A stretch of 64,000 nucleotides of DNA from contig NZ_OY764863.2 of NCBI RefSeq assembly GCF_963668515.2, forward strand, positions 496,719-560,718, in the 5' to 3' direction. Positions 1,171 to 61,547 of this stretch are shown here, piece by piece. How positions within the stretch are numbered: position 1 is the first letter of the stretch; each line of letters opens with the position of its first letter. The notes below the pieces were generated by a model. It saw nothing but the letters and a program-made list of their open reading frames with translations, did no database searches and had not been told where the DNA came from. The DNA comes from an uncultured Ilyobacter sp. (lineage in GTDB: Bacteria > Fusobacteriota > Fusobacteriia > Fusobacteriales > Fusobacteriaceae). Both the position numbers and the translations under genes were made by a program.

Positions 1171-4100
1171 CTTTTAATAGAACCATAGTGGAATGTAAAT
1201 TTAGAATACTGACCATATGACATATCATTACATACCTTTTAATAGAACCATAGTGGAATGTAAATACATATGCGAAGATGAATAGAAAGCGTAGAAGTAA
1301 TCTTTTAATAGAACCATAGTGGAATGTAAATCAATATACATCTATATGCCTGCCCATAGATGTAAACTTTTAATAGAACCATAGTGGAATGTAAATCATA
1401 AGAAGAAGGCAAGAACGGATTGTCATCACACTTTTAATAGAACCATAGTGGAATGTAAATTTGTTTAGTTGATATTATTTTTCTCCAACAAACTCACTTT
1501 TAATAGAACCATAGTGGAATGTAAATGGAGACAGATTCATTGAAATCATATTTATTTATAAGCTTTTAATAGAACCATAGTGGAATGTAAATGTTTATAA
1601 TTCTGCTCATTTCTCCTGAAGAGAATCCTTTTAATAGAACCATAGTGGAATGTAAATTTTTCTATATAATTCCATGGCCCACTCACGATTTTTCCTTTTA
1701 ATAGAACCATAGTGGAATGTAAATCCAGCAAATAGGCGGGCTTGGACTTGTTTATTTCACTTTTAATAGAACCATAGTGGAATGTAAATTGTCTATGACT
1801 TACGGAACTCAGGTATACTTGACGGCTTTTAATAGAACCATAGTGGAATGTAAATACACTTAACAAACACTCGGTAGAAATGTTAGTTTTCTTTTAATAG
1901 AACCATAGTGGAATGTAAATGCAGATGACTACGACTTCTTCATAAGTATCAATCAACTTTTAATAGAACCATAGTGGAATGTAAATTGAGAATTTTCTGA
2001 TTCTCGTATACTTCGTCTATTCTTTTAATAGAACCATAGTGGAATGTAAATAAATTCAGAATAAAGCAAAATGAAATAGTACATACCTTTTAATAGAACC
2101 ATAGTGGAATGTAAATAAATTTATGTAAATCTCGTCTATTTTTGATAGATATCTTTTAATAGAACCATAGTGGAATGTAAATCGGTAACACCCCACCATT
2201 TTCCAGTTAGATGCTTGACTTTTAATAGAACCATAGTGGAATGTAAATCTGTATTAGCAGAAGTTTTAAAGCAAAATGTAGGGGGCTTTTAATAGAACCA
2301 TAGTGGAATGTAAATGGCTCAATAAAAAGCTGGAACTCTGGGGAATGTCACTTTTAATAGAACCATAGTGGAATGTAAATGACGAATAACCCCCTGGTCT
2401 ACTATCACGTATAACTAACTTTTAATAGAACCATAGTGGAATGTAAATCAGATTCTACATCTTGAAGTAGTCCGTATAATCCTACTTTTAATAGAACCAT
2501 AGTGGAATGTAAATTCATCTCGTATATGCCATCTTTTACCAGTACAGGCTCTTTTAATAGAACCATAGTGGAATGTAAATGCTCGTCATCTGAAAGATTA
2601 TCCACATCTATTTTATCTTTTAATAGAACCATAGTGGAATGTAAATTACTTTATCCACGATTATCCATATCTGCTCACTTATAGCTTTTAATAGAACCAT
2701 AGTGGAATGTAAATGTATTCTAGTTGAATTCTCGTCACTTGATGAAATTACTTTTAATAGAACCATAGTGGAATGTAAATTAAGCACTGTCATAGGAGAT
2801 ATAAGACCAGCAAGGGCTTTTAATAGAACCATAGTGGAATGTAAATCAGAAGGGATCTACTGAATGAAGATTTTATATGCGACCTTTTAATAGAACCATA
2901 GTGGAATGTAAATCTGTATTAGCAGAAGTTTTAAAGCAAAATGTAGGGGGACTTTTAATAGAACCATAGTGGAATGTAAATATATTAACACTTGAAAAAT
3001 TATGGAAAGACAATTTTACTTTTAATAGAACCATAGTGGAATGTAAATGGTCACAGGATAAAGGAGTGAATAAAAAGGCTGTAAACCTTTTAATAGAACC
3101 ATAGTGGAATGTAAATAGAATATTTCTCAAGCTCTTTTTCTATTTTATCAGTCTTTTAATAGAACCATAGTGGAATGTAAATGTGTGTCCAGATCCAAAT
3201 CAGGAAACATTAACCCACCTTTTAATAGAACCATAGTGGAATGTAAATGTAGGAGAGATCAAAGGCGGCAGACTTCGGAGAGGTCTTTTAATAGAACCAT
3301 AGTGGAATGTAAATCAGGTAAAAAAGTTTTATAAAAAAGGATATAACAACTTTTAATAGAACCATAGTGGAATGTAAATAGAGTTAAAAAAGCGTGATAT
3401 AATAACCTTTGAAGCGCTTTTAATAGAACCATAGTGGAATGTAAATCTGCTTGCTTCTGCGTCGGTTCTTTGGAATCCTTTTGCTTTTAATAGAACCATA
3501 GTGGAATGTAAATGTAGTAACCAGACTGTTTACTCCCCTTGCTACCTTACTTTTAATAGAACCATAGTGGAATGTAAATAAGGGTGCTCCTGTAGGAGAT
3601 CACGGCTTCACATCTGCTTTTAATAGAACCATAGTGGAATGTAAATGAGCATCAGAGAGCTTTGTATTTACTCTGATCTTACCTTTTAATAGAACCATAG
3701 TGGAATGTAAATTATATTGGAAGATATGGAAGGGGATAAACAGTTTCCTTTTAATAGAACCATAGTGGAATGTAAATGAAGTAGATTTAAGGTAAATCTT
3801 TTCCCTGGGATGTCTTTTAATAGAACCATAGTGGAATGTAAATCTGTTCAAAAGTACATCTGATGCATCTGTAACACCGCTTTTAATAGAACCATAGTGG
3901 AATGTAAATAATGAAGGAATTAAATGAAAATCCCGAAACTGCCGTTCTTTTAATAGAACCATAGTGGAATGTAAATAGTTATTTCTGAATTTGTCCTAAA
4001 ATCATCTATCCAACTTTTAATAGAACCATAGTGGAATGTAAATCACAGGCCAGGGCGGCCTCGTTAAGCTCCCTGTGTTCTTTTAATAGAACCATAGTGG

Positions 4101-45959: not shown

Positions 45960-46053
45960 TGGCGGAAATGTGTAGGAATCGAACCTACCGACGACTCACG
46001 CCGCCCACACGGTTTTGAAGACCGGGGAGAACACCAGTTGCTCATCCAATTCC
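45960..46053 (-). tRNA. selC: tRNA-Sec (anticodon TCA), 94 nt, CCA encoded
   Basis: CTTCAAA anticodon loop, long variable arm, GTAGG-TTCGATT-CCTAC T arm and a GCCA end. Adjacent to selA/selB. Confidence 0.95.
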
Positions 46054-50391: not shown

Positions 50392-51375
50392 CTACTTTCC
50401 AAGAGTCGCAACCATAACAGCTTTTATAGTGTGCAGTCTGTTTTCAGCCTGGTCAAAAACCACTGAATTTGGTCCTTCAAAAACTTCATCTGATACTTCC
50501 ATCTCTGTAATTGCAAATTTATCAAAAATATCTCTTCCTACACTTGTTTCTAAGTCATGAAAGGCAGGAAGACAGTGAAGAAATATAGCATCTTCCTTGG
50601 CATAAGACATAGCCTCACTATTAACCTGATAAGGTTTCAAGAACTCTATCCTTTCCTCCCATACCTTATCTGGCTCACCCATAGATACCCACACATCTGT
50701 ATATACTGCGTCTGCATCCTTTAGACCTTCTTCCACAGATTCTGTGAAAGTAAGTTTGGCCCCTGTTAGTTTGGATATTTCCAGACACTGATTTATAAGT
50801 TTCTGAGGTGGGAAAAGAGATTTAGGACCTACTATCCTAAAATCCATACCCATCTTGGCAGCTCCAACCATGAGAGAGTTACCCATATTGTTTCTTCCGT
50901 CTCCCATATACACAAGTTTAACTCCTTGAAGTTTACCCTTGTGCTCTATTATAGTCATAAAATCTGCTAGTATCTGAGTAGGGTGAAACTCTGTTGTCAG
51001 ACCATTCCAGACAGAAATTCCAGAATGTTCTGCTAGTTCTTCCACCACCTTTTGTCCATAGCCCCTATACTCTATCGCATCAAACATTCTTCCGAGGACC
51101 CTTGCAGTATCCTTGATAGACTCTTTTTTACCTATCTGAGATCCAGAGGGCCCAAGATAAGTCACATGAGCTCCCTGATCATAGGCCGCCACCTCAAAAG
51201 AACATCTGGTTCTTGTAGAATCCTTTTCAAAAATAAGGGCAATATTTTTACCCATAAGTTTTTTATCTTCTTTTCCTGATTTCTTATCCTCTTTCAGCTT
51301 TTTCGAGAGATCGAGAAGTTCCTGTATCTCCTTAGGTTCAAAATCAAGTAGTTTTAAAAAATGTTTGTGTTTCAT
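50392..51375 (-). CDS. argF: Ornithine carbamoyltransferase
   Basis: STRTR, HPTQ and HCLP motifs. Confidence 0.96.
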
Positions 51376-51394
51376 CTAGCCTCCCCTAGTAATT

Positions 51395-52564
51395 TTAAAG
51401 TTCTTCAAACACCTCTTTTATTATCTGAAGTGCCTTGTCTAGTTCTTCATAGGTTACATTCAGAGGAGGTACAAGTCTTACCACATTATTCCCTGCCCCT
51501 ACAAGCATAAGTCCCTTTTCAAAAGCTTTTCCGACATAAGTTTTGGCTTCAAGCTCCTCTTTCAGTTTTATCCCAAGAAGGAGTCCCATTCCGTTTACTT
51601 TTTCGATTACAGAGTGTTCTGCCATCATTTTTTCGATTGCCTGCCTTGTATAGTCACTCTTCTGATCTACTTCAGCTATTATTCCACCCTCTACAAGTTC
51701 ATCTATAATTGTAACTGCCACTGCACACGCTAGAGGATTCCCTCCAAAGGTAGCACCGTGATCTCCAGGTACAAGAGTATCAGAAGCCTTACCTCTTGTA
51801 AGGACAGCCCCTATAGGAAAGCCTCCCCCTAGTCCCTTTGCCATTGTAACTATGTCAGGAACTACTCCAAATTTTTGGTATGCAAAATATGTCCCTAATC
51901 TACCTGCTCCACATTGAACTTCGTCAAAGATCAAAAGTGCGTTGTTCTTATCACAGAGTTCTCTTATTTTTTCAAGAAACTCTTTTTCAGCACTTATGAT
52001 TCCTCCCTCTCCCTGAATAACCTCCATGATCACTCCACAGACATCATCATCCATCTTAGATACAAAGTCCTCTATGTTGTTATACTCACACTCTACTACT
52101 CCTCCGATAAGAGGTCTGTAAGGATCCTGATATTTCTTCTGACCGGTTACAGAAAGGGCTCCCATGGTCCTTCCGTGAAATGAATTTTTCATATAAAGTA
52201 TCTTGTGCTTGCCTTCAGAAAACTCTTTACCAAATTTTCTTGCAATCTTGAGGGCCAGCTCATTTGCCTCTGTCCCGCTGTTACAGAAAAACATCTTCTC
52301 TAAATCCCCTAGCTGAGAAAGTTTTTTAGCAAGAGTGATCTGTTTTTCATTCCAGTAGAGATTTGATATATGCATCAGAGTCTCACTTTGATTTTTTATT
52401 GTCTCTACGATTTTAGGATTACTGTGACCTAGGCAGTTTACTGCCACCCCGGCTACAAAATCTATATATTCCTTCCCAGTTTCGTCATAGGCATATACAC
52501 CTTTACCTCTGACAAATGTAGGTTCAAATCTGTTATAAGTATTCATTACATTGCTCTTTCCCAT
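51395..52564 (-). CDS. argD: Acetylornithine aminotransferase
   Basis: FHGRTMGAL, FDEVQCG, AKGLGGG and TFGGNPLA motifs, in arg operon context. Confidence 0.93.
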   Translation of the reverse strand: MGKSNVMNTYNRFEPTFVRGKGVYAYDETGKEYIDFVAGVAVNCLGHSNPKIVETIKNQSETLMHISNLYWNEKQITLAKKLSQLGDLEKMFFCNSGTEANELALKIARKFGKEFSEGKHKILYMKNSFHGRTMGALSVTGQKKYQDPYRPLIGGVVECEYNNIEDFVSKMDDDVCGVIMEVIQGEGGIISAEKEFLEKIRELCDKNNALLIFDEVQCGAGRLGTYFAYQKFGVVPDIVTMAKGLGGGFPIGAVLTRGKASDTLVPGDHGATFGGNPLACAVAVTIIDELVEGGIIAEVDQKSDYTRQAIEKMMAEHSVIEKVNGMGLLLGIKLKEELEAKTYVGKAFEKGLMLVGAGNNVVRLVPPLNVTYEELDKALQIIKEVFEEL

Positions 52565-52580
52565 TATACCTCCCCTGACA

Positions 52581-53471
52581 CTATCTAACTATTCTATAAT
52601 CTTTTACTATCATTGTACCTATACCAGAGTCTGTAAAGAGCTCTAGTAAAATCGTGTGTTTTACTCTTCCATCTATAATATGAACATTTTCAGCTCCGGC
52701 GTCTAAAGCAGTCATGCAGGCATCGATTTTCGGAAGCATACCCCCGCTTATTGTTCCGTCCTCTATAAGGTCCTTTGCCTCATTATATTTCAGCACGCTT
52801 ATCTTGCTGCTAGGATCATTTATATCCCTCAGAAGTCCCGGAACATCTGTCATAAATAAAAATTTGTCGGCATTTAAGGCCCCTGCAATTGCTCCTGCCA
52901 CATAGTCGGCATTTATATTATATGTATTTCCATCCTCATCTACACCTACTGTTGATATTACAGGTATAAAGCCGTCTTTTTGCAGATCCTCTATAATACT
53001 GGCATTAATCTTCTTTACCTCTCCTACAAAGCCGATATCGACCTTTTCTTTTCCATCCATGAGGTATTTTTTTCTTGCTAAAATGAGATTGCCGTCCTTG
53101 CCGCTAAGGCCTATGGCTTTCCCACCGTGCCGATTGATTCCAGCTACTATGCCTTTATTCACCTTTCCAGATAATACCATCTCCACTATTTCCATGGTTT
53201 CCCCATCTGTTACTCTGTTTCCCATTTTAAACTCTGCTACCTTACCTATTTTTGCAAGCATACTATTTATTGCAGGTCCTCCGCCGTGGACTATCACCGG
53301 GTTAACACCTACATATTTCATGAGGACTATATCCTTCATGACCTGATCTTTTATCTCATCATTTATCATGGCATTCCCGCCGTATTTTACAACTACTGTT
53401 TTTCCAGCAAATTTCTTTATATACGGGAGTGCCTCTACTAGCATCTCAGCCTTTTCTATTTGTTTTTGCAT
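52581..53471 (-). CDS. argB: Acetylglutamate kinase
   Basis: VVKYGGNAM, VHGGGP, NINAD and GGMLPK motifs. Confidence 0.96.
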   Translation of the reverse strand: MQKQIEKAEMLVEALPYIKKFAGKTVVVKYGGNAMINDEIKDQVMKDIVLMKYVGVNPVIVHGGGPAINSMLAKIGKVAEFKMGNRVTDGETMEIVEMVLSGKVNKGIVAGINRHGGKAIGLSGKDGNLILARKKYLMDGKEKVDIGFVGEVKKINASIIEDLQKDGFIPVISTVGVDEDGNTYNINADYVAGAIAGALNADKFLFMTDVPGLLRDINDPSSKISVLKYNEAKDLIEDGTISGGMLPKIDACMTALDAGAENVHIIDGRVKHTILLELFTDSGIGTMIVKDYRIVR

Positions 53472-53494
53472 ATATTCCTCCTCAAAGGTATGAT

Positions 53495-56400
53495 TTAAAG
53501 TCCTAGGTAATACCTCATATGATTATATGTCACAGGTTTATTTGATTTTTTAACCTCTATAGCCTTCATAAATAAAGACGCTGTATCTATGGAAGTAAAG
53601 GCAGGAATCCTGTACTCAGAAGCCCTTCTTCTTATTCCAAATCCGTATCTGCTTCTGTCGTCTCCTATTGTAGGTGTGTTTATTATGAGGTTTATAACTC
53701 CATCTGATATGAGGTCTTTCAACTCCTCACCCTCTATATACTCAGCCTCTATACCCTTTTTATTGAGATATTCTGCGGTCCCCTTAGAAGCACATACAGA
53801 AAATCCTAGCTCTTTATAATTTTTTATTGTTTCAAGTCCCATATCTTTGCTGACTTCATTTAAAGATACATAGAGTTTACCGTCTACAGGTATCTTCATT
53901 CCTACAGCAGAGAATCCCTTGTACACAGCCACATCAAAATCCTGATCCACTCCTAAAACCTCTCCTGTAGATTTCATCTCAGGGCTCAGGAAAGTATCTA
54001 CGTCACTGAGTTTTTCCGTTGAGAATACAGGAAGTTTCACTGCATAGAAGTTTTTATTTTGTCTGAGACCTGTACCATACTCAAGGTCCTTTAATTTTTC
54101 CCCTAGCATAGTCTCAACTGCCACTTTTACCATAGGCACCCCTGTTACCTTACTCAAAATCGGTACAGTTCTAGAGGCTCTCGGATTTACCTCTATTATA
54201 TAGAGTTTATTTCCGTCAAAGACATACTGGATATTTATTATTCCTAAAGTTTTTATATTTACGGCTATTTTTTTTGTACTTTCCACAAGCTCGGCTATTA
54301 TTTCATCACTTAGGCTTATAGTCGGATAGCTTGTTATACTGTCTCCAGAGTGGACTCCAGTTTTTTCTATATGCTCCATTATTCCAGGAATAAGTATATC
54401 CTCACCGTCACAGATGGCATCCACTTCTATCTCAGTTCCGTAGATATATTTATCTATAAGGATCGTTGTTTCTTTGGACATATCTATGGCATGGGTCATA
54501 TACTCTGTAAGGCTTTCCTTGTTGTGTACCACTCTCATGGCTCTACCACCAATTACATAGGATGGTCTCACAACTACAGGGTAGCCTATCTTTTCAGCAG
54601 CCTTATAAGATTCTTCCAGATTTTTTGCTGCATAGCCTTCAGGACTTTCTATTCCAAGACCTTCAAGGAAGTTTCGGAATTTATCCCTGTCTTCTGCAAG
54701 GTCGATAGATTCATATTTTGTACCTAATATATTTACCCCTGACTCTTCAAGTCTTTTTGCGAGATTTATAGAGGTCTGACCTCCAAACTGCACTATTACC
54801 CCATAAGGATTTTCCTCACGGATAACATTTAAGACGTCATCAATATAAAGAGACTCAAAGTAAAGTTTGTCAGATGTGTCAAAGTCAGTACTTACAGTTT
54901 CAGGATTGTTGTTTATAATAATAGACTGGTAGCCTGCTTCTTTTATAGCCCATACACCATGTACAGAACAGTAGTCAAATTCCACACCCTGTCCTATTCT
55001 TATAGGTCCAGATCCTATAACCACTATTTTTTTATCATCTGAGATTATATTTTCATCTTCTTTTTCATAACACGAATAATAATAAGGGGTAACAGCTTCA
55101 AATTCACCGCTGCATGTATCTACCATCTTATAAACAGGATACATTCCCTTTTCTTCTCTTATTTTATCTACTTCTGATTTATTCCACTTACTCAGCCCTA
55201 GTATCTCATCATCAGTGAATCCCATAGTTTCGGCCTTTTCCAGGATTTTATGAGAAATTTCATTTTCAGAAAGTTCTTTTTCAAGGTCAATTATATTTTT
55301 GATCCCGTTTAGAAACCATCTGTCGACCTTACTCACTTCATGTATCTCCTCTATACCTACTCCTATCCTCATTGCCTGAGCTATGGCAAAGATCCTCTCA
55401 TCGTCACACTCTTTTATCTTTGCAACTAGTTCCTCTTTTCCTAGGCTGTTAAATGCTGGTAGATTTATACCTGAAAGTCCTCCCTCAAGGCATGTTATAG
55501 CCTTTAAAAGTGCGGCTTCAAAGGTCCTGTCGATTGCCATTACCTCTCCCGTAGCCTTCATCTGAGTACCAAGTTTTTTAGAAGCCGATCTAAATTTATC
55601 AAAAGGCCATTTGGGTATCTTCATAACCACATAGTCAAGGGCCGGCTCAAAAAAGGCACTAGAATAACCTGTCACATAGTTTTTCAGTTCATCTAGATTA
55701 TATCCTAAAGCTATCTTCGCAGCTATCTTTGCAATAGGATAACCTGTAGCCTTAGAAGCCAGTGCAGATGATCTGCTTACCCTGGGATTTACCTCTATAA
55801 CTATATAATTATGTGAGTGAGGGTCTAGGGCAAACTGTACATTACACCCTCCCTCTATTTTAAGCTCGTCTATTATCTTAAGAGAAGACTGTCTCAGCAT
55901 CTGATATTCATAATTTGTCAGAGTCTGAGATGGGGCTATTACTATACTGTCTCCTGTGTGTATTCCCACAGGGTCAAAGTTTTCCATGTTACATACAGTT
56001 ATACAGTTGCCCTTAGAGTCTCTCATAACCTCATACTCTATCTCTTTCCAGCCTGCCACACTCTGCTCAAGAAGAAGCTGTTTTATAGGACTCATTATAA
56101 GACCCTTAGAACAGATGTCCTTAAAGTCCTTCATGTTGTCGGCTATTCCTCCCCCTGTTCCTCCCATGGTATAGGCAGGTCTGACTATGATAGGGAAACC
56201 GTTTGTCTCTGCAAACTTTACACACTCATCCATGGTAGAGGCTATTCCGCTTATAGCTACAGGCTCTCCCAGTTTCTCTAGGAGCTCCTTAAACTCTTCT
56301 CTGTCCTCGGCTCTCCTTATTGCTTCACTGTTTATCCCCAGAAGTTTTACATTATATTTCTCAAGAATACCCTGACCTTCCAGTTCCATAGCCAGATTTA

Positions 56401-56680
56401 AGGCTGTCTGTCCGCCAAAACCTGCCAAGATTCCCTGGGGTCTCTCTTTCTTTATGATCTCTTCTGCTACTTCCACCGTGAGAGGTTCTATATAAACCTT
56501 ATCGGCGATATTGTTGTCTGTCATTATTGTGGCAGGGTTGCTGTTTAAGAGGACTATCTCTATGCCCTCTTCTTTTATAGCCTTGCATGCCTGTGTGCCG
56601 GAATAGTCAAATTCTGCAGCCTGTCCTATGATTATAGGTCCGGAACCTATAATCATTACTTTTTCTATATTATGCTTCAT
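53495..56680 (-). CDS. carB: Carbamoyl-phosphate synthase large subunit
   Basis: GSGPIIIGQAAEFDYSG, duplicated ATP-grasp domains and a C-terminal MGS-like domain. Confidence 0.97.
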   Translation of the reverse strand: MKHNIEKVMIIGSGPIIIGQAAEFDYSGTQACKAIKEEGIEIVLLNSNPATIMTDNNIADKVYIEPLTVEVAEEIIKKERPQGILAGFGGQTALNLAMELEGQGILEKYNVKLLGINSEAIRRAEDREEFKELLEKLGEPVAISGIASTMDECVKFAETNGFPIIVRPAYTMGGTGGGIADNMKDFKDICSKGLIMSPIKQLLLEQSVAGWKEIEYEVMRDSKGNCITVCNMENFDPVGIHTGDSIVIAPSQTLTNYEYQMLRQSSLKIIDELKIEGGCNVQFALDPHSHNYIVIEVNPRVSRSSALASKATGYPIAKIAAKIALGYNLDELKNYVTGYSSAFFEPALDYVVMKIPKWPFDKFRSASKKLGTQMKATGEVMAIDRTFEAALLKAITCLEGGLSGINLPAFNSLGKEELVAKIKECDDERIFAIAQAMRIGVGIEEIHEVSKVDRWFLNGIKNIIDLEKELSENEISHKILEKAETMGFTDDEILGLSKWNKSEVDKIREEKGMYPVYKMVDTCSGEFEAVTPYYYSCYEKEDENIISDDKKIVVIGSGPIRIGQGVEFDYCSVHGVWAIKEAGYQSIIINNNPETVSTDFDTSDKLYFESLYIDDVLNVIREENPYGVIVQFGGQTSINLAKRLEESGVNILGTKYESIDLAEDRDKFRNFLEGLGIESPEGYAAKNLEESYKAAEKIGYPVVVRPSYVIGGRAMRVVHNKESLTEYMTHAIDMSKETTILIDKYIYGTEIEVDAICDGEDILIPGIMEHIEKTGVHSGDSITSYPTISLSDEIIAELVESTKKIAVNIKTLGIINIQYVFDGNKLYIIEVNPRASRTVPILSKVTGVPMVKVAVETMLGEKLKDLEYGTGLRQNKNFYAVKLPVFSTEKLSDVDTFLSPEMKSTGEVLGVDQDFDVAVYKGFSAVGMKIPVDGKLYVSLNEVSKDMGLETIKNYKELGFSVCASKGTAEYLNKKGIEAEYIEGEELKDLISDGVINLIINTPTIGDDRSRYGFGIRRRASEYRIPAFTSIDTASLFMKAIEVKKSNKPVTYNHMRYYLGL

Positions 56681-57749
56681 CTTTACTCTCCTTCATGAAC
56701 TTTATAAACTTGTCAAAAAGATAGGTCGTATCCTCAGGTCCAGGTGCCCCCTCAGGATGGAACTGAACAGAAAATACCGGATGATCTTCTAGCTCTATTC
56801 CCTCTACAGTATTATCATTCAAATTTATAAAGTTTACCCTTACACCCGTCCCTGCAAGGCTCTTTTCATCAGTGGCATAGCCGTGATTCTGGGAGCTGAT
56901 AAAGGATTTATTCCTGTCAATGTCTAAAACTCCGTGATTTCCACCCCTGTGTCCAAACTTTGTCTTATAGGTGTCCCCACCTACGGCCAGAGAGATCACC
57001 TGATGTCCCAGACAGATACCAAACATAGGAAGTTTTCCTATAAAGTTTTTTGCAGCCTCTATACCCTCTACAGCCAGTTTTGGATCTCCAGGTCCGTTGC
57101 TAAGAAGGACACCGTCTGGATTTCCTGCCATAATCTCTTCACTTGTTGCATTAAATGGATATACGGTTATGTGGCAGCCTCTCCTTTGCAGGTTTCTTAT
57201 TATATTCTCTTTTACCCCAAAGTCTATGAGAGCCACTCTGAACCCATCTCCCGATACTTCGTAGACCTCCTGAGTCCCAACTTCTCTCATCCAGTCGTCT
57301 TCAACCTTGATGGCTCCCATATATTCATCTATCTCAGCCTGTGTAAGCTTTCTGCTAGATATGACACACTTCATAGCTCCACTATCTCTTATTTTTTTGG
57401 TAACAGCCCTTGTATCTACTCCATATACCCCTACAATCTTCATTTTTTTCAGAAATTTATCAAAATCCCCTTCACTCATGAAGTTGCTTGGATTTTCAGA
57501 TACGGCCTTTACAACCATACCCTTTGCATAAGACCTGTCCGCCTCATTAAAAGACTCATTTACTCCATAATTCCCGATAAGTGGATAGGTCATGGTAATA
57601 ACCTGACCTGCATATGAAGGGTCTGTCAGTATCTCTTGATAACCAGTCATGGATGTATTAAAAACCAGCTCGCCACTGGAAACTCCCTCATAACCAAATC
57701 CTTTGCCTTCGTACACAGTACCGTCTTCTAGGTAAAGCGCTCCGTACAT
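56670..57749 (-). CDS. carA: Carbamoyl-phosphate synthase small subunit
   Basis: FNTSMTGYQE, SNGPGDP, GICLGHQ and QFHPE motifs. Confidence 0.97.
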   Translation of the reverse strand: MYGALYLEDGTVYEGKGFGYEGVSSGELVFNTSMTGYQEILTDPSYAGQVITMTYPLIGNYGVNESFNEADRSYAKGMVVKAVSENPSNFMSEGDFDKFLKKMKIVGVYGVDTRAVTKKIRDSGAMKCVISSRKLTQAEIDEYMGAIKVEDDWMREVGTQEVYEVSGDGFRVALIDFGVKENIIRNLQRRGCHITVYPFNATSEEIMAGNPDGVLLSNGPGDPKLAVEGIEAAKNFIGKLPMFGICLGHQVISLAVGGDTYKTKFGHRGGNHGVLDIDRNKSFISSQNHGYATDEKSLAGTGVRVNFINLNDNTVEGIELEDHPVFSVQFHPEGAPGPEDTTYLFDKFIKFMKESKDEA

Positions 57750-57814
57750 AATTAAGTTGCCCCCTTTTTTTAATCAAATAAAACTATTTCTGCCAAATAA
57801 CTTAACATTAGTTA

Positions 57815-59032
57815 TTAGGTTCTGTATGCCCCGTTTATTTCCACATATTTATAACTGAGGTCGCATCCCCAAGCAGTCGCCTCAGCTTCTCCAATTTTCA
57901 TGTCGATATAAACAGTTATCTCTTTTTCTTTTAGAATTTTCGAAGCAAGGAGTTCATCAAACACCATACCTCTTCCGTTTTCAGCCACCTGTATTGACAC
58001 TCCATTCGATTTCAGGAAAATATCAATTTTTTCAGGATCAAAATCAGCTTCAGAATATCCTACTGCACACAGGATTCTTCCCCAGTTTGCATCTTCACCA
58101 AAGAAAGCACACTTGGTAAGGTTAGAAGTTATTACAGACTTAGCTGCCGACTTAGCACTTTTTACATCCTTTGCATTTACTACATTTACCTCTAGAAGTT
58201 TTGTGGCACCCTCTCCGTCTACTGCTATTAATTTTGCAAGCTCTTTATTTAGGTAATCGAGGGCAGCCTTAAATTTAACAAAATTTTCATCTTCACTCTC
58301 GATAAGTTTGTTTTCGGCCATACCGTTTGCCATTACTACGACCATATCATTTGTACTGGTATCCCCGTCAACTGAGATCATATTGTAAGAGTCGTCGACA
58401 CTTCCCTTAAAGGCCTTTTCAAGCATAGCCTTTGTAATGTTTATGTCTGTCACCACAGTTCCTAGCATCGTTGCCATATTTGGATGAATCATCCCAGAAC
58501 CTTTTGCCATACCTGCTATAGTTACAGGCTTTCCGTCTACTTCTATCTCTATTGCAACCTCTTTTGAAAAAAGGTCTGTGGTCATTATAGCTTCTGCTGC
58601 ATCGTGTCCACCTTCTGCTGAGACGGCTTTGCATGCCTCTTCTATACCTGAAATAACTTTATCCATTGGAAGCTGAACACCTATAACACCTGTAGATTCT
58701 ACGATGACCTCTTTTGGGTCAATTGCAAAATGCTCTGCTACTACCTTACCCATTTTTACAGCATTTTCGTATCCCTCTTTACCTGTGCAGGCATTGGCAT
58801 TTCCGCTGTTTACCACAATGGCTCTTATAGTATCATTTTTTATGTTTTCCATATCTAGAAAAAGAGGTGCAGCCTTTACCTTATTTGTTGTAAACACCGC
58901 TGATCCCACAGCTTCTTTCTCACTGTAAACAACGCACACATCTTTTCTTCCGCTCTTTTTTATTCCTGCAGTTATTCCTGCTGCCTTTATACCCTGTACA
59001 GCAGTTATGGATTTTCCTTCTAATATTTTCAT
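57815..59032 (-). CDS. argJ: Bifunctional ornithine acetyltransferase / N-acetylglutamate synthase
   Basis: KGSGMIHPNMATML, DGDTSTND and WGCDLS motifs. Confidence 0.96.
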   Translation of the reverse strand: MKILEGKSITAVQGIKAAGITAGIKKSGRKDVCVVYSEKEAVGSAVFTTNKVKAAPLFLDMENIKNDTIRAIVVNSGNANACTGKEGYENAVKMGKVVAEHFAIDPKEVIVESTGVIGVQLPMDKVISGIEEACKAVSAEGGHDAAEAIMTTDLFSKEVAIEIEVDGKPVTIAGMAKGSGMIHPNMATMLGTVVTDINITKAMLEKAFKGSVDDSYNMISVDGDTSTNDMVVVMANGMAENKLIESEDENFVKFKAALDYLNKELAKLIAVDGEGATKLLEVNVVNAKDVKSAKSAAKSVITSNLTKCAFFGEDANWGRILCAVGYSEADFDPEKIDIFLKSNGVSIQVAENGRGMVFDELLASKILKEKEITVYIDMKIGEAEATAWGCDLSYKYVEINGAYRT

Positions 59033-59049
59033 TATTTCCCCCCCTATAA

Positions 59050-60090
59050 TTATGGATTCATTGCCAAAATATCTAAACCGTCGTTTTCCTCAAGACCAAA
59101 CATGATATTCATATTCTGTATTGCCTGTCCTGCAGCACCTTTTATAAGGTTATCTATTGCAGATATTGCTATCACTCTATTTGTCCTTTTGTCCACTCTT
59201 ACTGCGATATCACAGAGGTTTGTTCCCCTTACAAACCTAGTTTCAGGAAGGTCATTTATCACTCTTATAAAATACTCATTTTCATAAAACTTGTTGTAGA
59301 GGTCATAAATCTCTTTTTCAGTGGTATCTTTTTTCAACTTTGAGTAAGTCACAGAAAGTATTCCTCTGTTCATAGGGACAAGATGAGGTGTGAATGTCAA
59401 AGCTATATTTTCCTCTCCTATCTTAGATAACTCTTGCTCTATCTCTGCTGTATGTCTGTGAGTTGTCACACCATAGGCCTTTATAGATTCATTGCACTCT
59501 GTATAGAGGCTTGCTAGTTTAGCAGATCTACCTGCTCCTGATACTCCTGACTTTGCATCTATCACAATAGAATCCGTCTCTATGAGGTCATTATCTAATA
59601 GAGGAGCAAGAGCTAATATGCTAGCAGTGGGATAACATCCCGGATTCGCTATTATTTTGCAGTTTTTTATCTCTTCTCTTCTTTTCAGTTCAGGCAGACC
59701 ATAAACTGCATCTTTTATGAATTCAGGATGTTTATAATCGTCTTTGTACCACTCTTTAAAGGTTTCTTCACTATCTAGCCTAAAGTCAGCACCTAGATCT
59801 ATAGCTTTTATACCCTTGTCCATAGCGAGCTTTACAAAGGGAGCAGATTTACCGTGAGGAAGAGCCATAAAAAGAACATCTATCTCATCTATCTTAGATT
59901 CTACATCCTCTACCCCTATAAGCTTGTCATCTAAAAACTTTTTAAAGTTCCTATAGATTTCGCTGAACTCCTGTCCTACATAGCTATTTGATACCATAAA
60001 CTTTATCTCTGCATTTTTGTGCATGTTTAGATACCATACAAGCTGTTGTCCGGCATAGCCAGTGGCTCCGATTATTCCTACTCTCACCAT
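59050..60090 (-). CDS. argC: N-acetyl-gamma-glutamyl-phosphate reductase
   Basis: GATGYAG, ANPGCYPT, KSGVSGAG and DNLIKGAAGQA motifs. Confidence 0.96.
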   Translation of the reverse strand: MVRVGIIGATGYAGQQLVWYLNMHKNAEIKFMVSNSYVGQEFSEIYRNFKKFLDDKLIGVEDVESKIDEIDVLFMALPHGKSAPFVKLAMDKGIKAIDLGADFRLDSEETFKEWYKDDYKHPEFIKDAVYGLPELKRREEIKNCKIIANPGCYPTASILALAPLLDNDLIETDSIVIDAKSGVSGAGRSAKLASLYTECNESIKAYGVTTHRHTAEIEQELSKIGEENIALTFTPHLVPMNRGILSVTYSKLKKDTTEKEIYDLYNKFYENEYFIRVINDLPETRFVRGTNLCDIAVRVDKRTNRVIAISAIDNLIKGAAGQAIQNMNIMFGLEENDGLDILAMNP

Positions 60091-60204
60091 TTTACAATTC
60101 CTCCCCTTCATATTTATATATAGTGCATAATACTCTTTTAGATGATTTGATTTCAGTACCTCTTTTTCTCTTACCTTAATTTATATTCTGATTATAAAGG
60201 TTAG

Positions 60205-60248
60205 AAAAAAAACCGGTATCCGCCTAAACTTATCTGGCTAATACCGGT
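60205..60248 (-). terminator. Leader terminator 2 upstream of argC
   Basis: Minus strand ACCGGTAT(TAGCC)...(GGCGG)ATACCGGT followed by a U-run (8 T including the stem base). Confidence 0.85.
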
Positions 60249-60258
60249 GCATCTTTTT

Positions 60259-60291
60259 AAAAAAAACCAACAGATTTAAACTGTCGGCTTT
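60259..60291 (-). terminator. Leader terminator 1 upstream of argC
   Basis: Minus strand AGCCGACAG-TTTAAAT-CTGTTGGTT (9 bp with G-U pairs) followed by a U-run. Confidence 0.65.
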
Positions 60292-60368
60292 ATCAACTTT
60301 TGTATACTCATAGAGAGCCGCTCCTCTCTAATCTTTTCAAAAGAAATTTATGATGTCAATTTAGCCAC

Positions 60369-60428
60369 TTAGAACGATTTATATTGGTTTGTAATCTGCC
60401 TCCTCGTCCTGCTTATCCTAAACATCAT
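60369..60428 (-). CDS. Putative arg operon leader peptide MMFRISRTRRQITNQYKSF (4 Arg, all AGG)
   Basis: GGGAGGA RBS 7 nt before the ATG. Lies between the operon promoter and the leader terminators. Too short for the ORF track. Confidence 0.8.
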   Translation of the reverse strand: MMFRISRTRRQITNQYKSF

Positions 60429-60465
60429 GTTAATTCCTCCCGGTTTTTTATATCTTTTGTAATTG

Positions 60466-60495
60466 ATAATAACAGAAAACAACCGTGTGTGTCAA
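60466..60495 (-). promoter_or_regulatory. Sigma70-type promoter of the arg operon
   Basis: TTGACA-18 bp-TATTAT with an extended TG, about 30 nt upstream of the leader RBS. Confidence 0.75.
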
Positions 60496-60761
60496 TAATT
60501 TTTTCTCTCTAAATCCTTATTTCAGGCACTTTTTCAACTCTAAGAATAACTAAAATTTAGATACTTTCATTGCCTCTAACTCCTACAGATTCTTTATTTT
60601 AAGTGACTGCAATCATTCTCACTACTACTATCTCTATACTTCCAGAATCCTTGTATAAAAGACCCTGTTTTTTTAAAAATTTTATTATACTTCTTTCCTG
60701 AACTCATAAAAATATCTTTATAAACAAGTATAATTTATAGAAGAGAATTTTTCTACTCTTC

Positions 60762-61337
60762 CTAGCATACAAATACATAGGTATGTGACTCTGTAATAAG
60801 TCCATTTATCCTTTTATCGTGCTCCTCTGTTGGCACTTCATCCACCATCTGAACATTATATCCTAAAGCCACCTTAGGGATCTCTTTTTCCATACTACTA
60901 AAGAATTTATCATAAAATCCTCCTCCATAGCCTATTCTGTAACCGTTTATATCAAACCCCACTCCTGGAACCACTACTAAGTCTATCTCCTCCACAGCAG
61001 CTCTTGATTTTTCCTCAGAAGGTTCTAGTATTCCATAGTAACCCTCCTTTAGGTCGTTCATACTCTCTATTTTAAATACTTCCATCTCTTTGTCTTTTGA
61101 ATTTATTTTGGGAACGCATACATTTTTTCCGTCAGTTATAGCTTTTTCTATTATTTTATGAGTATTTACCTCACTTCCAAAGCTTACAAATATAAAAATG
61201 GTTTCTGCATTTTTGTAAAAAATACTTTTTGTAAAATTTTTAAATATATCTTCATCTAGATTTTCTTTTTGGGTTGAACTTAACTGATCTCTTCTCTCTA
61301 AAAGGATCTTTCTCATCTCTGTTTTCTTTTTTTTCAT
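60762..61337 (-). CDS. 5-formyltetrahydrofolate cyclo-ligase
   Basis: IDLVVVPGVGFD...RIGYGGGFYD and HDKRI motifs. Confidence 0.93.
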   Translation of the reverse strand: MKKKKTEMRKILLERRDQLSSTQKENLDEDIFKNFTKSIFYKNAETIFIFVSFGSEVNTHKIIEKAITDGKNVCVPKINSKDKEMEVFKIESMNDLKEGYYGILEPSEEKSRAAVEEIDLVVVPGVGFDINGYRIGYGGGFYDKFFSSMEKEIPKVALGYNVQMVDEVPTEEHDKRINGLITESHTYVFVC

Positions 61338-61547
61338 AGTTTCCTCCACCCATCTTTAGATTTCATAAAAAAGATTTTCTTATCACTTATTATAGCTTTT
61401 TTTTATAAAAAAACAAAACAAAACTTGTCAGACCAATTGCGTACCCCTATATTACTAATATTCCTCTCTCTGTTTCTGTTAATTTTCCACTACCTTATTT
61501 TCTACCATTATTAAAATTTATAAAAGAAATTAAACCTTTGGGATAAT

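Follow-up and report, generated by a model that had tools for sequence, protein, structure and literature searches.

The window analysed here is a 64,000-nucleotide (nt) stretch of the genome of an uncultured Ilyobacter sp. (family Fusobacteriaceae; contig NZ_OY764863.2), and the element under study occupies positions 60205-60495 on its minus strand, ahead of the arginine biosynthesis operon that begins with argC. This element is very probably a ribosome-mediated arginine attenuator of unusual architecture, controlling a phylogenetically coherent regulon in ArgR-less bacteria. We put at about 80% the probability that it is a leader-peptide transcription attenuator sensing charged tRNA-Arg and a member of a conserved leader-RNA family of ~160 nt in Fusobacteriaceae. 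A preliminary description of the window had proposed that a leader peptide with Arg codons governs the terminators ahead of the arg operon, and the comparative evidence lends support to this proposal. The small upstream open reading frame (ORF) and its Arg codons have been retained in no fewer than seven genera, in contrast to the remainder of the peptide. The parts of the element, their conservation and covariation, the codon bias and the association with arginine genes were all established by sequence analysis.

The elements listed in the preliminary description (promoter, ribosome-binding site, 19-amino-acid (aa) ORF with four AGG codons, hairpin, two terminators and argC) were all found on the minus strand where it had placed them (Table 1). 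The position of the promoter is kept in the four genomes of the same genus. On folding, the 266-nt leader was more stable than 200 of 200 dinucleotide shuffles (z = -4.8). Two intrinsic terminators, T1 and T2, separate the leader ORF from the first structural gene; they were called on folding, U-tracts and covariation, and a consensus terminator scan of the region flagged neither of them.

Table 1. Features of the argC leader region and the operon downstream, in window coordinates; SD, Shine-Dalgarno sequence
Feature	Position	Strand	Basis or remark
Regulated operon argC-argJ-carA-carB-argB-argD-argF	50392..60090	-	NCBIfam equivalog matches; co-oriented, tight spacing
argC	60090-59050	-	NCBIfam equivalog match
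Sigma-70-type promoter	60466..60495	-	Best promoter-like site of the region, 11/12 positions
-35 box TTGACA	60495-60490	-	Followed by an 18-nt spacer containing TG
-10 box TATTAT	60471-60466	-	Preceded by TG
Predicted transcription start	~60460	-	
SD GGGAGG of the leader ORF, part of segment 1	60441-60436	-	7 nt 5' of AUG
Leader ORF, 19 codons, MMFRISRTRRQITNQYKSF and stop	60369..60428	-	Own SD and start codon at 60428
Four Arg codons, all AGG (codons 4, 7, 9, 10)	60419-60417, 60410-60408, 60404-60402, 60401-60399	-	
UGGCUAA (antiterminator strand, segment 2)	60367-60361	-	1 nt beyond the leader stop
Linker AUUGACAUCAU, rest of segment 2	60360-60350	-	Segment 2 overall 60350..60367
U-rich tract UUUCUUUU (anti-SD and 5' arm of small hairpin P0), then GAAAAGAUU	60330..60346	-	
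AAGAUU	60335-60330	-	Invariant across the RNA family (alignment)
Hairpin P1, UAGAGAG / loop GAGCGG / CUCUCUA	60311..60330	-	-9.5 kcal/mol
AUGAGUAUA, the AUGAGYAUA motif, 3' of P1	60303..60311	-	Present in 34/35 members
Pre-T1 segment GUUGAU	60297-60292	-	Complementary to segment 2
Terminator T1: 5' arm AGCCGACAG (60289-60281), loop, 3' arm CUGUUGGUU (60273-60265), U8	60289-60259	-	-12.5 kcal/mol
Spacer AAAAAGAUG between T1 and T2		-	Spacer and T2 together 60205..60258
Terminator T2: 5' arm ACCGGUAUUAGCC, 3' arm, then U8	60248-60205	-	-17.6 kcal/mol
UUAGCCA inside the T2 5' arm	60241-60235	-	Exact complement of UGGCUAA
argC AUG	60090	-	115 nt 3' of T2

An SD-preceded leader ORF was found upstream of 32 of the 35 aligned members of the RNA family. 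The leader peptides are diverse (MLIRRSRMRRRIKTNKSYHFKMA, MLLRHERHGISNL, MLFIIRRNRNR, MIFNMRRQRNRKF, MLMNSRIRRRKSH..., MLKLRRRRIRRSRTKNN...), and nearly all of them are Arg-rich. In 28 distinct leaders, Arg accounts for 94 of 473 codons (19.9%), compared with 4.15% of the codons in the long ORFs of this genome. AGG makes up 71 of these 94 Arg codons (76%), compared with 20% of Arg codons genome-wide. Five tRNA-Arg genes are present in the genome, including one with the anticodon CCU, which reads AGG, and two with UCU. The Arg codons of the leaders lie mainly at codons 4-11. The last Arg codon of the cluster is at a near-constant distance from the antiterminator segment, -33 to -48 nt (two leaders have an extra Arg codon closer to the segment than the cluster), while the leader stop lies anywhere from -40 to +15 nt relative to the same segment. 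Thus, the conserved geometry is that of the Arg cluster to segment 2, and not of the stop to segment 2.

A BLAST search with the leader revealed a second copy of the RNA in the same genome (C3:359996-360140), with 77% identity 3' of the ORF. This paralog has its own promoter and SD, a distinct Arg-rich leader, MLTMKRIRRSKEKHS, with three AGG codons, and the same RNA with compensatory changes in the stems and two terminators. It heads an operon encoding an amino-acid ATP-binding cassette (ABC) permease, ATPase and binding protein, followed by argH and argG. Therefore, with one copy at the argC operon and the other at the argH/argG operon, the whole arginine pathway is headed by two copies of the element. 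Both loci are retained in genomes of the same genus; the closest named match of the window ArgC, from an uncultured Ilyobacter, is 79% identical, in line with placement of the window in an Ilyobacter-like genus. In a genome-wide scan of small ORFs, the argC leader and the leader of the paralog were the sole by-eye picks having an ATG start, an SD, a cluster of Arg codons that are all AGG, and T-runs downstream. That these two leaders precede the two arg operons is beyond chance. ArgR (TIGR01529, PF02863) gave no match in this genome, which is 99.99% complete, and none among 100 sampled Fusobacteriaceae genomes; in the sampled phylum, ArgR was detected in one outlying genome only, and control genomes gave matches in the same search. 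The RNA element appears to fill the role of ArgR in Fusobacteriaceae.

The distribution of the RNA was studied using two covariance models, R1 and the subsequently refined R2. Matches to R1 were found in 31 of 151 Fusobacteriota genomes, every one of them from Fusobacteriaceae, and there was no R1 match in the other families searched in this set. R2 matched 47 of 131 Fusobacteriaceae genomes, with up to three copies per genome. Two exact-pattern scans over ~185,000 species gave true matches confined to Fusobacteriaceae, namely Ilyobacter, Propionigenium, F. perfoetens, F. ulcerans, Fusobacterium sp. SB021 and metagenome-assembled genomes. The first of these scans produced mainly chance matches in AT-rich genomes and two or three true Fusobacteriaceae records, from Propionigenium maris (DSM 9537, our genome G009) and an uncultured Ilyobacter. 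In the genus designated g12, the RNA is present in none of 20-22 genomes, and argH is absent there too. Genomes of genera g4, g8 and g3 and of Leptotrichiaceae that bear argH mostly lack the RNA motif; Arg-rich leaders of other kinds, with terminators, are present in g8 and g3. Similarity of the promoter region to two other loci of the genome (L024 and L026) turned out to be promoter-like sequence alone and was discarded.

All downstream contexts that could be assigned are arginine-related, and the element is always upstream of and co-oriented with the genes. It precedes argC operons in its own genus, in genus g15 and in P. maris; argH in two genomes (G055 and G140); argS, followed by metK, in one (G179); polar-amino-acid ABC transporter genes, frequently with argH or argG next; and genes of NhaC-family transporters, with argH next. 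P. maris and genus g15 have an additional Arg-rich leader, with a third terminator, between T2 and argC.

Several other leaders were noted in the course of these searches. A divergent candidate Arg attenuator in genus g8 (locus L196 of G054, oriented 1888-2090) has the leader MLLTVLRKRNSQRFQSNRRSFSVQK with five Arg codons and two tandem terminators ahead of a binding protein-argG-argH operon, and it lacks the conserved P0/P1 core. In genus g4, a structured RNA, GGAGCCUAAGGCCGAYGGCGA...GCUGCCAUAACAAUACGC, with an intrinsic terminator occurs twice in locus L194 (G099:C1; minus strand 1657-1932 and 3417-3722) and also in L199. The L194 copies precede a membrane-transporter gene and an NhaC-type transporter-argH operon; in other genera, an operon of the latter type carries the Arg leader RNA. 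The structured RNA has no Rfam match and might represent another regulator acting on these genes. In genus g11 (L201 of G014 and L181 of G149), the leader ORF upstream is missing; the long T2 hairpin contains a small ORF, MVFSKNRAVRFFVL, which has two Arg codons and GGAGAG 5' of it. In the genome under study, outside the window, a 56-codon leader ORF (MSFRISSVRRKKMIHF...; G000:C1:651796-651966, plus strand) is located immediately 5' of a pyrB-like carbamoyltransferase gene, together with a strong SD, numerous U-runs and a hairpin resembling a terminator. The first ten codons of this ORF resemble those of the argC leader (MMFRISRTRR), and it is possibly a pyrimidine or Arg attenuator that shares ancestry with the argC element.

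The hairpins P1, T1 and T2 all covary. In the 35-member alignment, which was fitted to the model, 97.8% of their positions are paired and double changes occur at 22 of 24 pairs, compared with 34-49% paired in controls with slid partners. The covarying pairs are distributed as 5 of 6 in P1, 8 of 9 in T1 and 9 of 9 in T2. Three classical alternative pairings are conserved in relatives: 1:2, 2:3 and 3:4, the last being T1 itself. In the 2:3 antiterminator, the partners of UGGCU and the linker are the 5' arm of T1 and the pre-T1 segment, a pairing that excludes T1, is conserved and covaries. By-eye counting indicated that the UGGCU segment is the top upstream partner of the T1 5' arm in about two thirds of the 35 members. 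The 2:3 duplexes have energies of -7 to -12.8 kcal/mol (z = -1.8 to -4.9 against shuffles), and lineage-specific co-changes can be seen in them (UGGCUUG/CAAGCC, UGGCUGA/UUAGCCA, UAAUUGAC/GUUAAUUA). When the RNA was folded up to the T1 5' arm, 11 of 12 lineages closed the 2:3 helix, with P0 and P1 inside it, giving a three-way junction; when the 3' arm of T1 was added, most lineages switched to T1.

The 1:2 anti-antiterminator is formed by the SD with the U-rich tract and by the AUG and first codons with the linker. In the minimum free energy (MFE) fold of the window leader, the SD pairs with the U-rich tract at 60346-60339. The median z of the 1:2 helix is -2.5 in 31 distinct leaders, and covariation is seen between the first codons and the linker (AUGAUGU/ACAUCAU, GUUAAUCAGG/CUUGAUUAAC, GUUAUUUAUU/AAUAAUGAC). 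For the second terminator, pairing of segment 2 with the pre-T2 region and the T2 5' arm amounts to -12.1 kcal/mol (z = -2.5) in the window. At the argC loci of this genus, UGGCUAA/UUAGCCA together with CAUC/GAUG gives -12 to -14.5 kcal/mol (z from about -2 to -4), and in most lineages the antiterminator strand is similarly complementary to the pre-T2 region and the arm of T2.

Fifteen apparently unpaired nucleotides around the freely covarying P1 are invariant in the 35 members, which come from several genera. Several further candidates for structural or coding features were considered and rejected. A helix CUUUUG:CAAAAG, suggested by RNAalifold on a 10-sequence alignment, is not retained in P. 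maris or other genera, and another, CAUC:GAUG, is retained only in this genus, as part of the T2 antiterminator, and is not family-wide. Relay of the freed T1 3' arm to the T2 5' arm would involve just about six weak pairs, with T2 still in the MFE fold. A functional second mini-ORF beginning with AUGAGYAUA was dismissed as a coding feature in view of the mostly missing SD and of lengths from 3 to 27 codons. A K-turn or loop-E in the P1 flanks and an internal promoter did not fit on by-eye inspection.

These pairings modify the mechanism that the preliminary description had put forward. It had noted the complementarity of UGGCUAA to UUAGCCA of T2, which is indeed exact; this site is, however, the second target of the antiterminator strand, the 5' flank and arm of T1 coming first in nearly all members. 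It had also supposed that a ribosome at the stop codon masks UGGCUAA. This fits the argC locus, but it is not a general rule, since in the paralog and many relatives 16-40 nt separate the stop from the antiterminator segment downstream of it. The conserved anti-antiterminator would instead be the SD/start region, paired with the linker and the U-rich tract and opened by a ribosome on the early Arg codons. In folds of the window leader with ribosome-covered nucleotides masked, 1:2 stands and the T1 arm is free if the ribosome is absent or at UAA. With the ribosome on AGG codon 7, the T1 arm pairs with 60363-60368, so that the fold switches for this codon; for codon 10 it does not.

From these data, we infer the order of events, the role of the ribosome, the passage of T2 and the response to arginine as follows. 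Transcription would begin at ~60460, and a ribosome would load at the strong SD. When charged tRNA-Arg is plentiful, notably tRNA-Arg-CCU, the ribosome would pass all 19 codons, and segment 1 (the SD, AUG and first codons) would pair with the linker after UGGCUAA and with the U-rich tract; at the window locus, the terminating ribosome would additionally cover UGGCUAA. The T1 5' arm would then be free, T1 would form and transcription would end, with T2 stopping leakage. When charged tRNA-Arg is scarce, the ribosome would be held at AGG codons 4-10 and would occupy segment 1. UGGCUAA and the linker could then form antiterminator AT1 with the pre-T1 segment and 5' arm of T1, the junction enclosing P0 and P1, and RNA polymerase would cross T1. 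After that, T1 would form harmlessly behind the polymerase and release the antiterminator strand, which would pair with GAUG...UUAGCCA of T2 (AT2) and allow read-through into argCJ-carAB-argBDF. One antiterminator strand would thus serve sequentially on T1 and then on T2. The paralog would act likewise on the ABC transporter-argH-argG operon.

Several observations weigh against the attenuator reading. A masked ribosome on the last AGG (codon 10) alone leaves 1:2 closed in the MFE fold, and opening it from this codon would probably need a second ribosome, either queued or initiating. Even with the antiterminator enforced, T1 and T2 remain the thermodynamically favoured structures, and T2 stays in the MFE fold; therefore, the switch must be kinetic. 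At the argC loci of g15 and P. maris, the antiterminator strand has no complementarity to T2. Among the 35 members, no pairing partner was found for the invariant AAGAUU and AUGAGYAUA around P1, and the attenuator mechanism leaves both motifs without a role. Three lineages (G087, G005 and G149/G014) keep the RNA without a leader ORF, which was lost through a clean 57-nt deletion in G087 and G005, and compensatory P1 changes are present in leaderless members after the deletion. At the argC locus of G004 (L004), the leader frame extends 50 codons into the T1 loop, with no stop before UGGCUAA, apparently via a 1-nt length difference in an A-run, which is either a real variant or an assembly error. 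In addition, the alignment behind the pair counts was itself fitted to the model, and the leaders are phylogenetically related, so that the binomial p-values for the codon bias overstate independence and are merely indicative.

Some of these observations could be accounted for by a composite sensor, which we regard as rather unlikely. Its core (the U-tract/AAGAUU, P1 and AUGAGYAUA, closed by the UGGCU:AGCC helix) would bind a metabolite, a protein or uncharged tRNA-Arg and make the antiterminator more or less stable, with the leader peptide being a second input or dispensable. Invariant unpaired nucleotides around a covarying hairpin are typical of ligand or protein sites and are unneeded in a plain attenuator, and at locus L196 of g8 an Arg leader is accompanied by two terminators in the absence of the core. 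The three-way junction of the pre-T1 fold points in the same direction, as does the persistence of the RNA in leaderless members, with compensatory P1 changes after the deletion; such changes, however, are also expected if the antiterminator is kept merely for operon expression. All five tRNA-Arg genes of the genome terminate in GCCA, complementary to the invariant UGGC, and the invariant AAGAUU includes the Arg codon AGA, but the GCCA/UGGC match spans just 4 nt, and T1 already provides UGGC with a conserved partner. The U-tract is accounted for as an anti-SD, no T-box or riboswitch model matches, and in 32 of 35 members a nearly always Arg-rich leader ORF, preceded by an SD, lies at a fixed distance. 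It is likewise doubtful that the core is a second, ribosome-independent aptamer or protein/tRNA-Arg platform, which would make the element a hybrid attenuator-riboswitch-like RNA still working in leaderless members.

Two other explanations seem very improbable to us. Like the fungal arginine attenuator peptide or TnaC, the Arg-rich nascent peptide might stall its ribosome on free arginine and so cover the antiterminator segment at high arginine. Such logic suits a biosynthetic operon, and in the window the stop lies 1 nt 5' of UGGCUAA, where an arrested terminating ribosome would mask it. Arg richness, however, is the sole feature shared by the peptides, which vary in length and C-terminus; with the stop at -40 to +15 nt, the ribosome at the stop would be out of reach of the antiterminator segment in most members; and the strong bias to one rarer codon, AGG, points to tRNA supply and not to the peptide. 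It is equally hard to credit that the element is a stand-alone gene for a small RNA or small protein, with argC transcribed from its own promoter in the 115-nt spacer. The two strong tandem terminators would suit such a gene, as would a promoter-like site (9/12 positions) and the conservation of the T2-argC spacer in the genus. Against this, promoter-like sites in the region number 4, compared with 4.4 in shuffles, and in other genera T2 is just 35-45 nt from the downstream start codon. The element is invariably upstream of and co-oriented with arginine genes, and the alternative pairings involving the terminator arms are conserved.

The T2-argC spacer itself (window 60091-60204, minus strand, 115 nt) is highly conserved in four genomes of the same genus, and the promoter-like sequence in it, CTGAAA-18-TATTAT, is located at 60156-60127. 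The sole tRNA gene of the window is that of tRNA-Sec (anticodon TCA; 45960-46053, minus strand).

As a probable leader-peptide attenuator, the element can be compared with those of enterobacteria (trpL, hisL, leuL, thrL, pheL, ilvL). These likewise have a short ORF with a cluster of codons for the end product, exclusive 1:2, 2:3 and 3:4 pairings and an intrinsic terminator ahead of biosynthetic genes. In them, too, the terminator is more stable than the antiterminator, so that the choice is kinetic, and a less common control codon is used, as in leuL, where it is CUA. The differences are considerable: here the amino acid is arginine and the bacteria are Fusobacteriota, the control codons lie at positions 4-11 beside the start, segment 1 is the translation-initiation region itself, two tandem terminators share one antiterminator strand, a conserved structured core lies in the antiterminator loop, and one element serves biosynthesis, uptake and argS.

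T-boxes, including the ARG T-boxes of Firmicutes, sense tRNA charging ahead of synthetase, biosynthesis and transporter genes. They likewise act by antitermination depending on tRNA charging, the regulon here (argS, arg genes and transporters) is T-box-like, and the UGGN-type UGGC in the antiterminator strand matches the GCCA end of tRNA-Arg. However, neither Stem I nor a T-box sequence was recognized by eye, and a translated Arg-rich ORF is present instead. The T-box model RF00230 gave no match at E-values up to 10 in 59500-61500, and Rfam at a permissive threshold gave no match to T-box or known leader families for the locus and divergent relatives; the top leader-family score at the locus was 17.1 bits for Thr_leader, whose gathering threshold is 55. 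The arginine pathway is the textbook case of control by a protein repressor, ArgR, and not under attenuation. ArgR/AhrC has the same task, the shutting off of arginine synthesis and uptake at high arginine, but it acts as a protein on DNA operators and was undetected here and in the sampled family.

The nearest published case is the leader orf34 of Salmonella speF, an ORF with Arg codons (PMC6386406). There, the speed of translation at Arg codons likewise reports the arginine supply and remodels the mRNA, but the gene controlled is that of polyamine synthesis (ornithine decarboxylase) and not one of arg biosynthesis. Rfam indicated no sequence relation between the two leaders. The speF leader reportedly works through alternative mRNA conformations and effects of Rho and RNase, and is not a tandem intrinsic-terminator attenuator. 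Synthetase attenuators (the pheST leader and the cysS uORFC-8-2 motif, PMC8632094) likewise combine an upstream ORF of cognate codons with a terminator, which can be compared with the argS member in G179; they concern another amino acid and another RNA, while here one family serves many operon types. The attenuator surveys consulted make no mention of arginine (PMC2965389; PMC8632094), and the leader peptide of P. aeruginosa carA is related to pyrimidines (PMC4997734). The preliminary description knew of no leader-peptide attenuator for a bacterial arg biosynthetic operon, and full-text literature searches for bacterial arginine leader peptides and attenuators likewise found no published case for arg biosynthesis.

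Fusobacteriaceae thus appear to run their arginine regulon, comprising synthesis from glutamate, the supply of carbamoyl phosphate and uptake, by one RNA working on the trp principle, and in one species the regulon extends to the tRNA synthetase gene argS. If this is true, arginine would be added to the few amino acids sensed by leader peptides, and the control of arg genes would be explained in the Ilyobacter, Propionigenium and Fusobacterium varium/ulcerans/perfoetens groups of the family. The element would also provide a new RNA motif with two conserved alternative folds for Rfam and genome annotation, as well as a natural case of a single antiterminator strand serving two tandem terminators, and its invariant core could conceal a further input.

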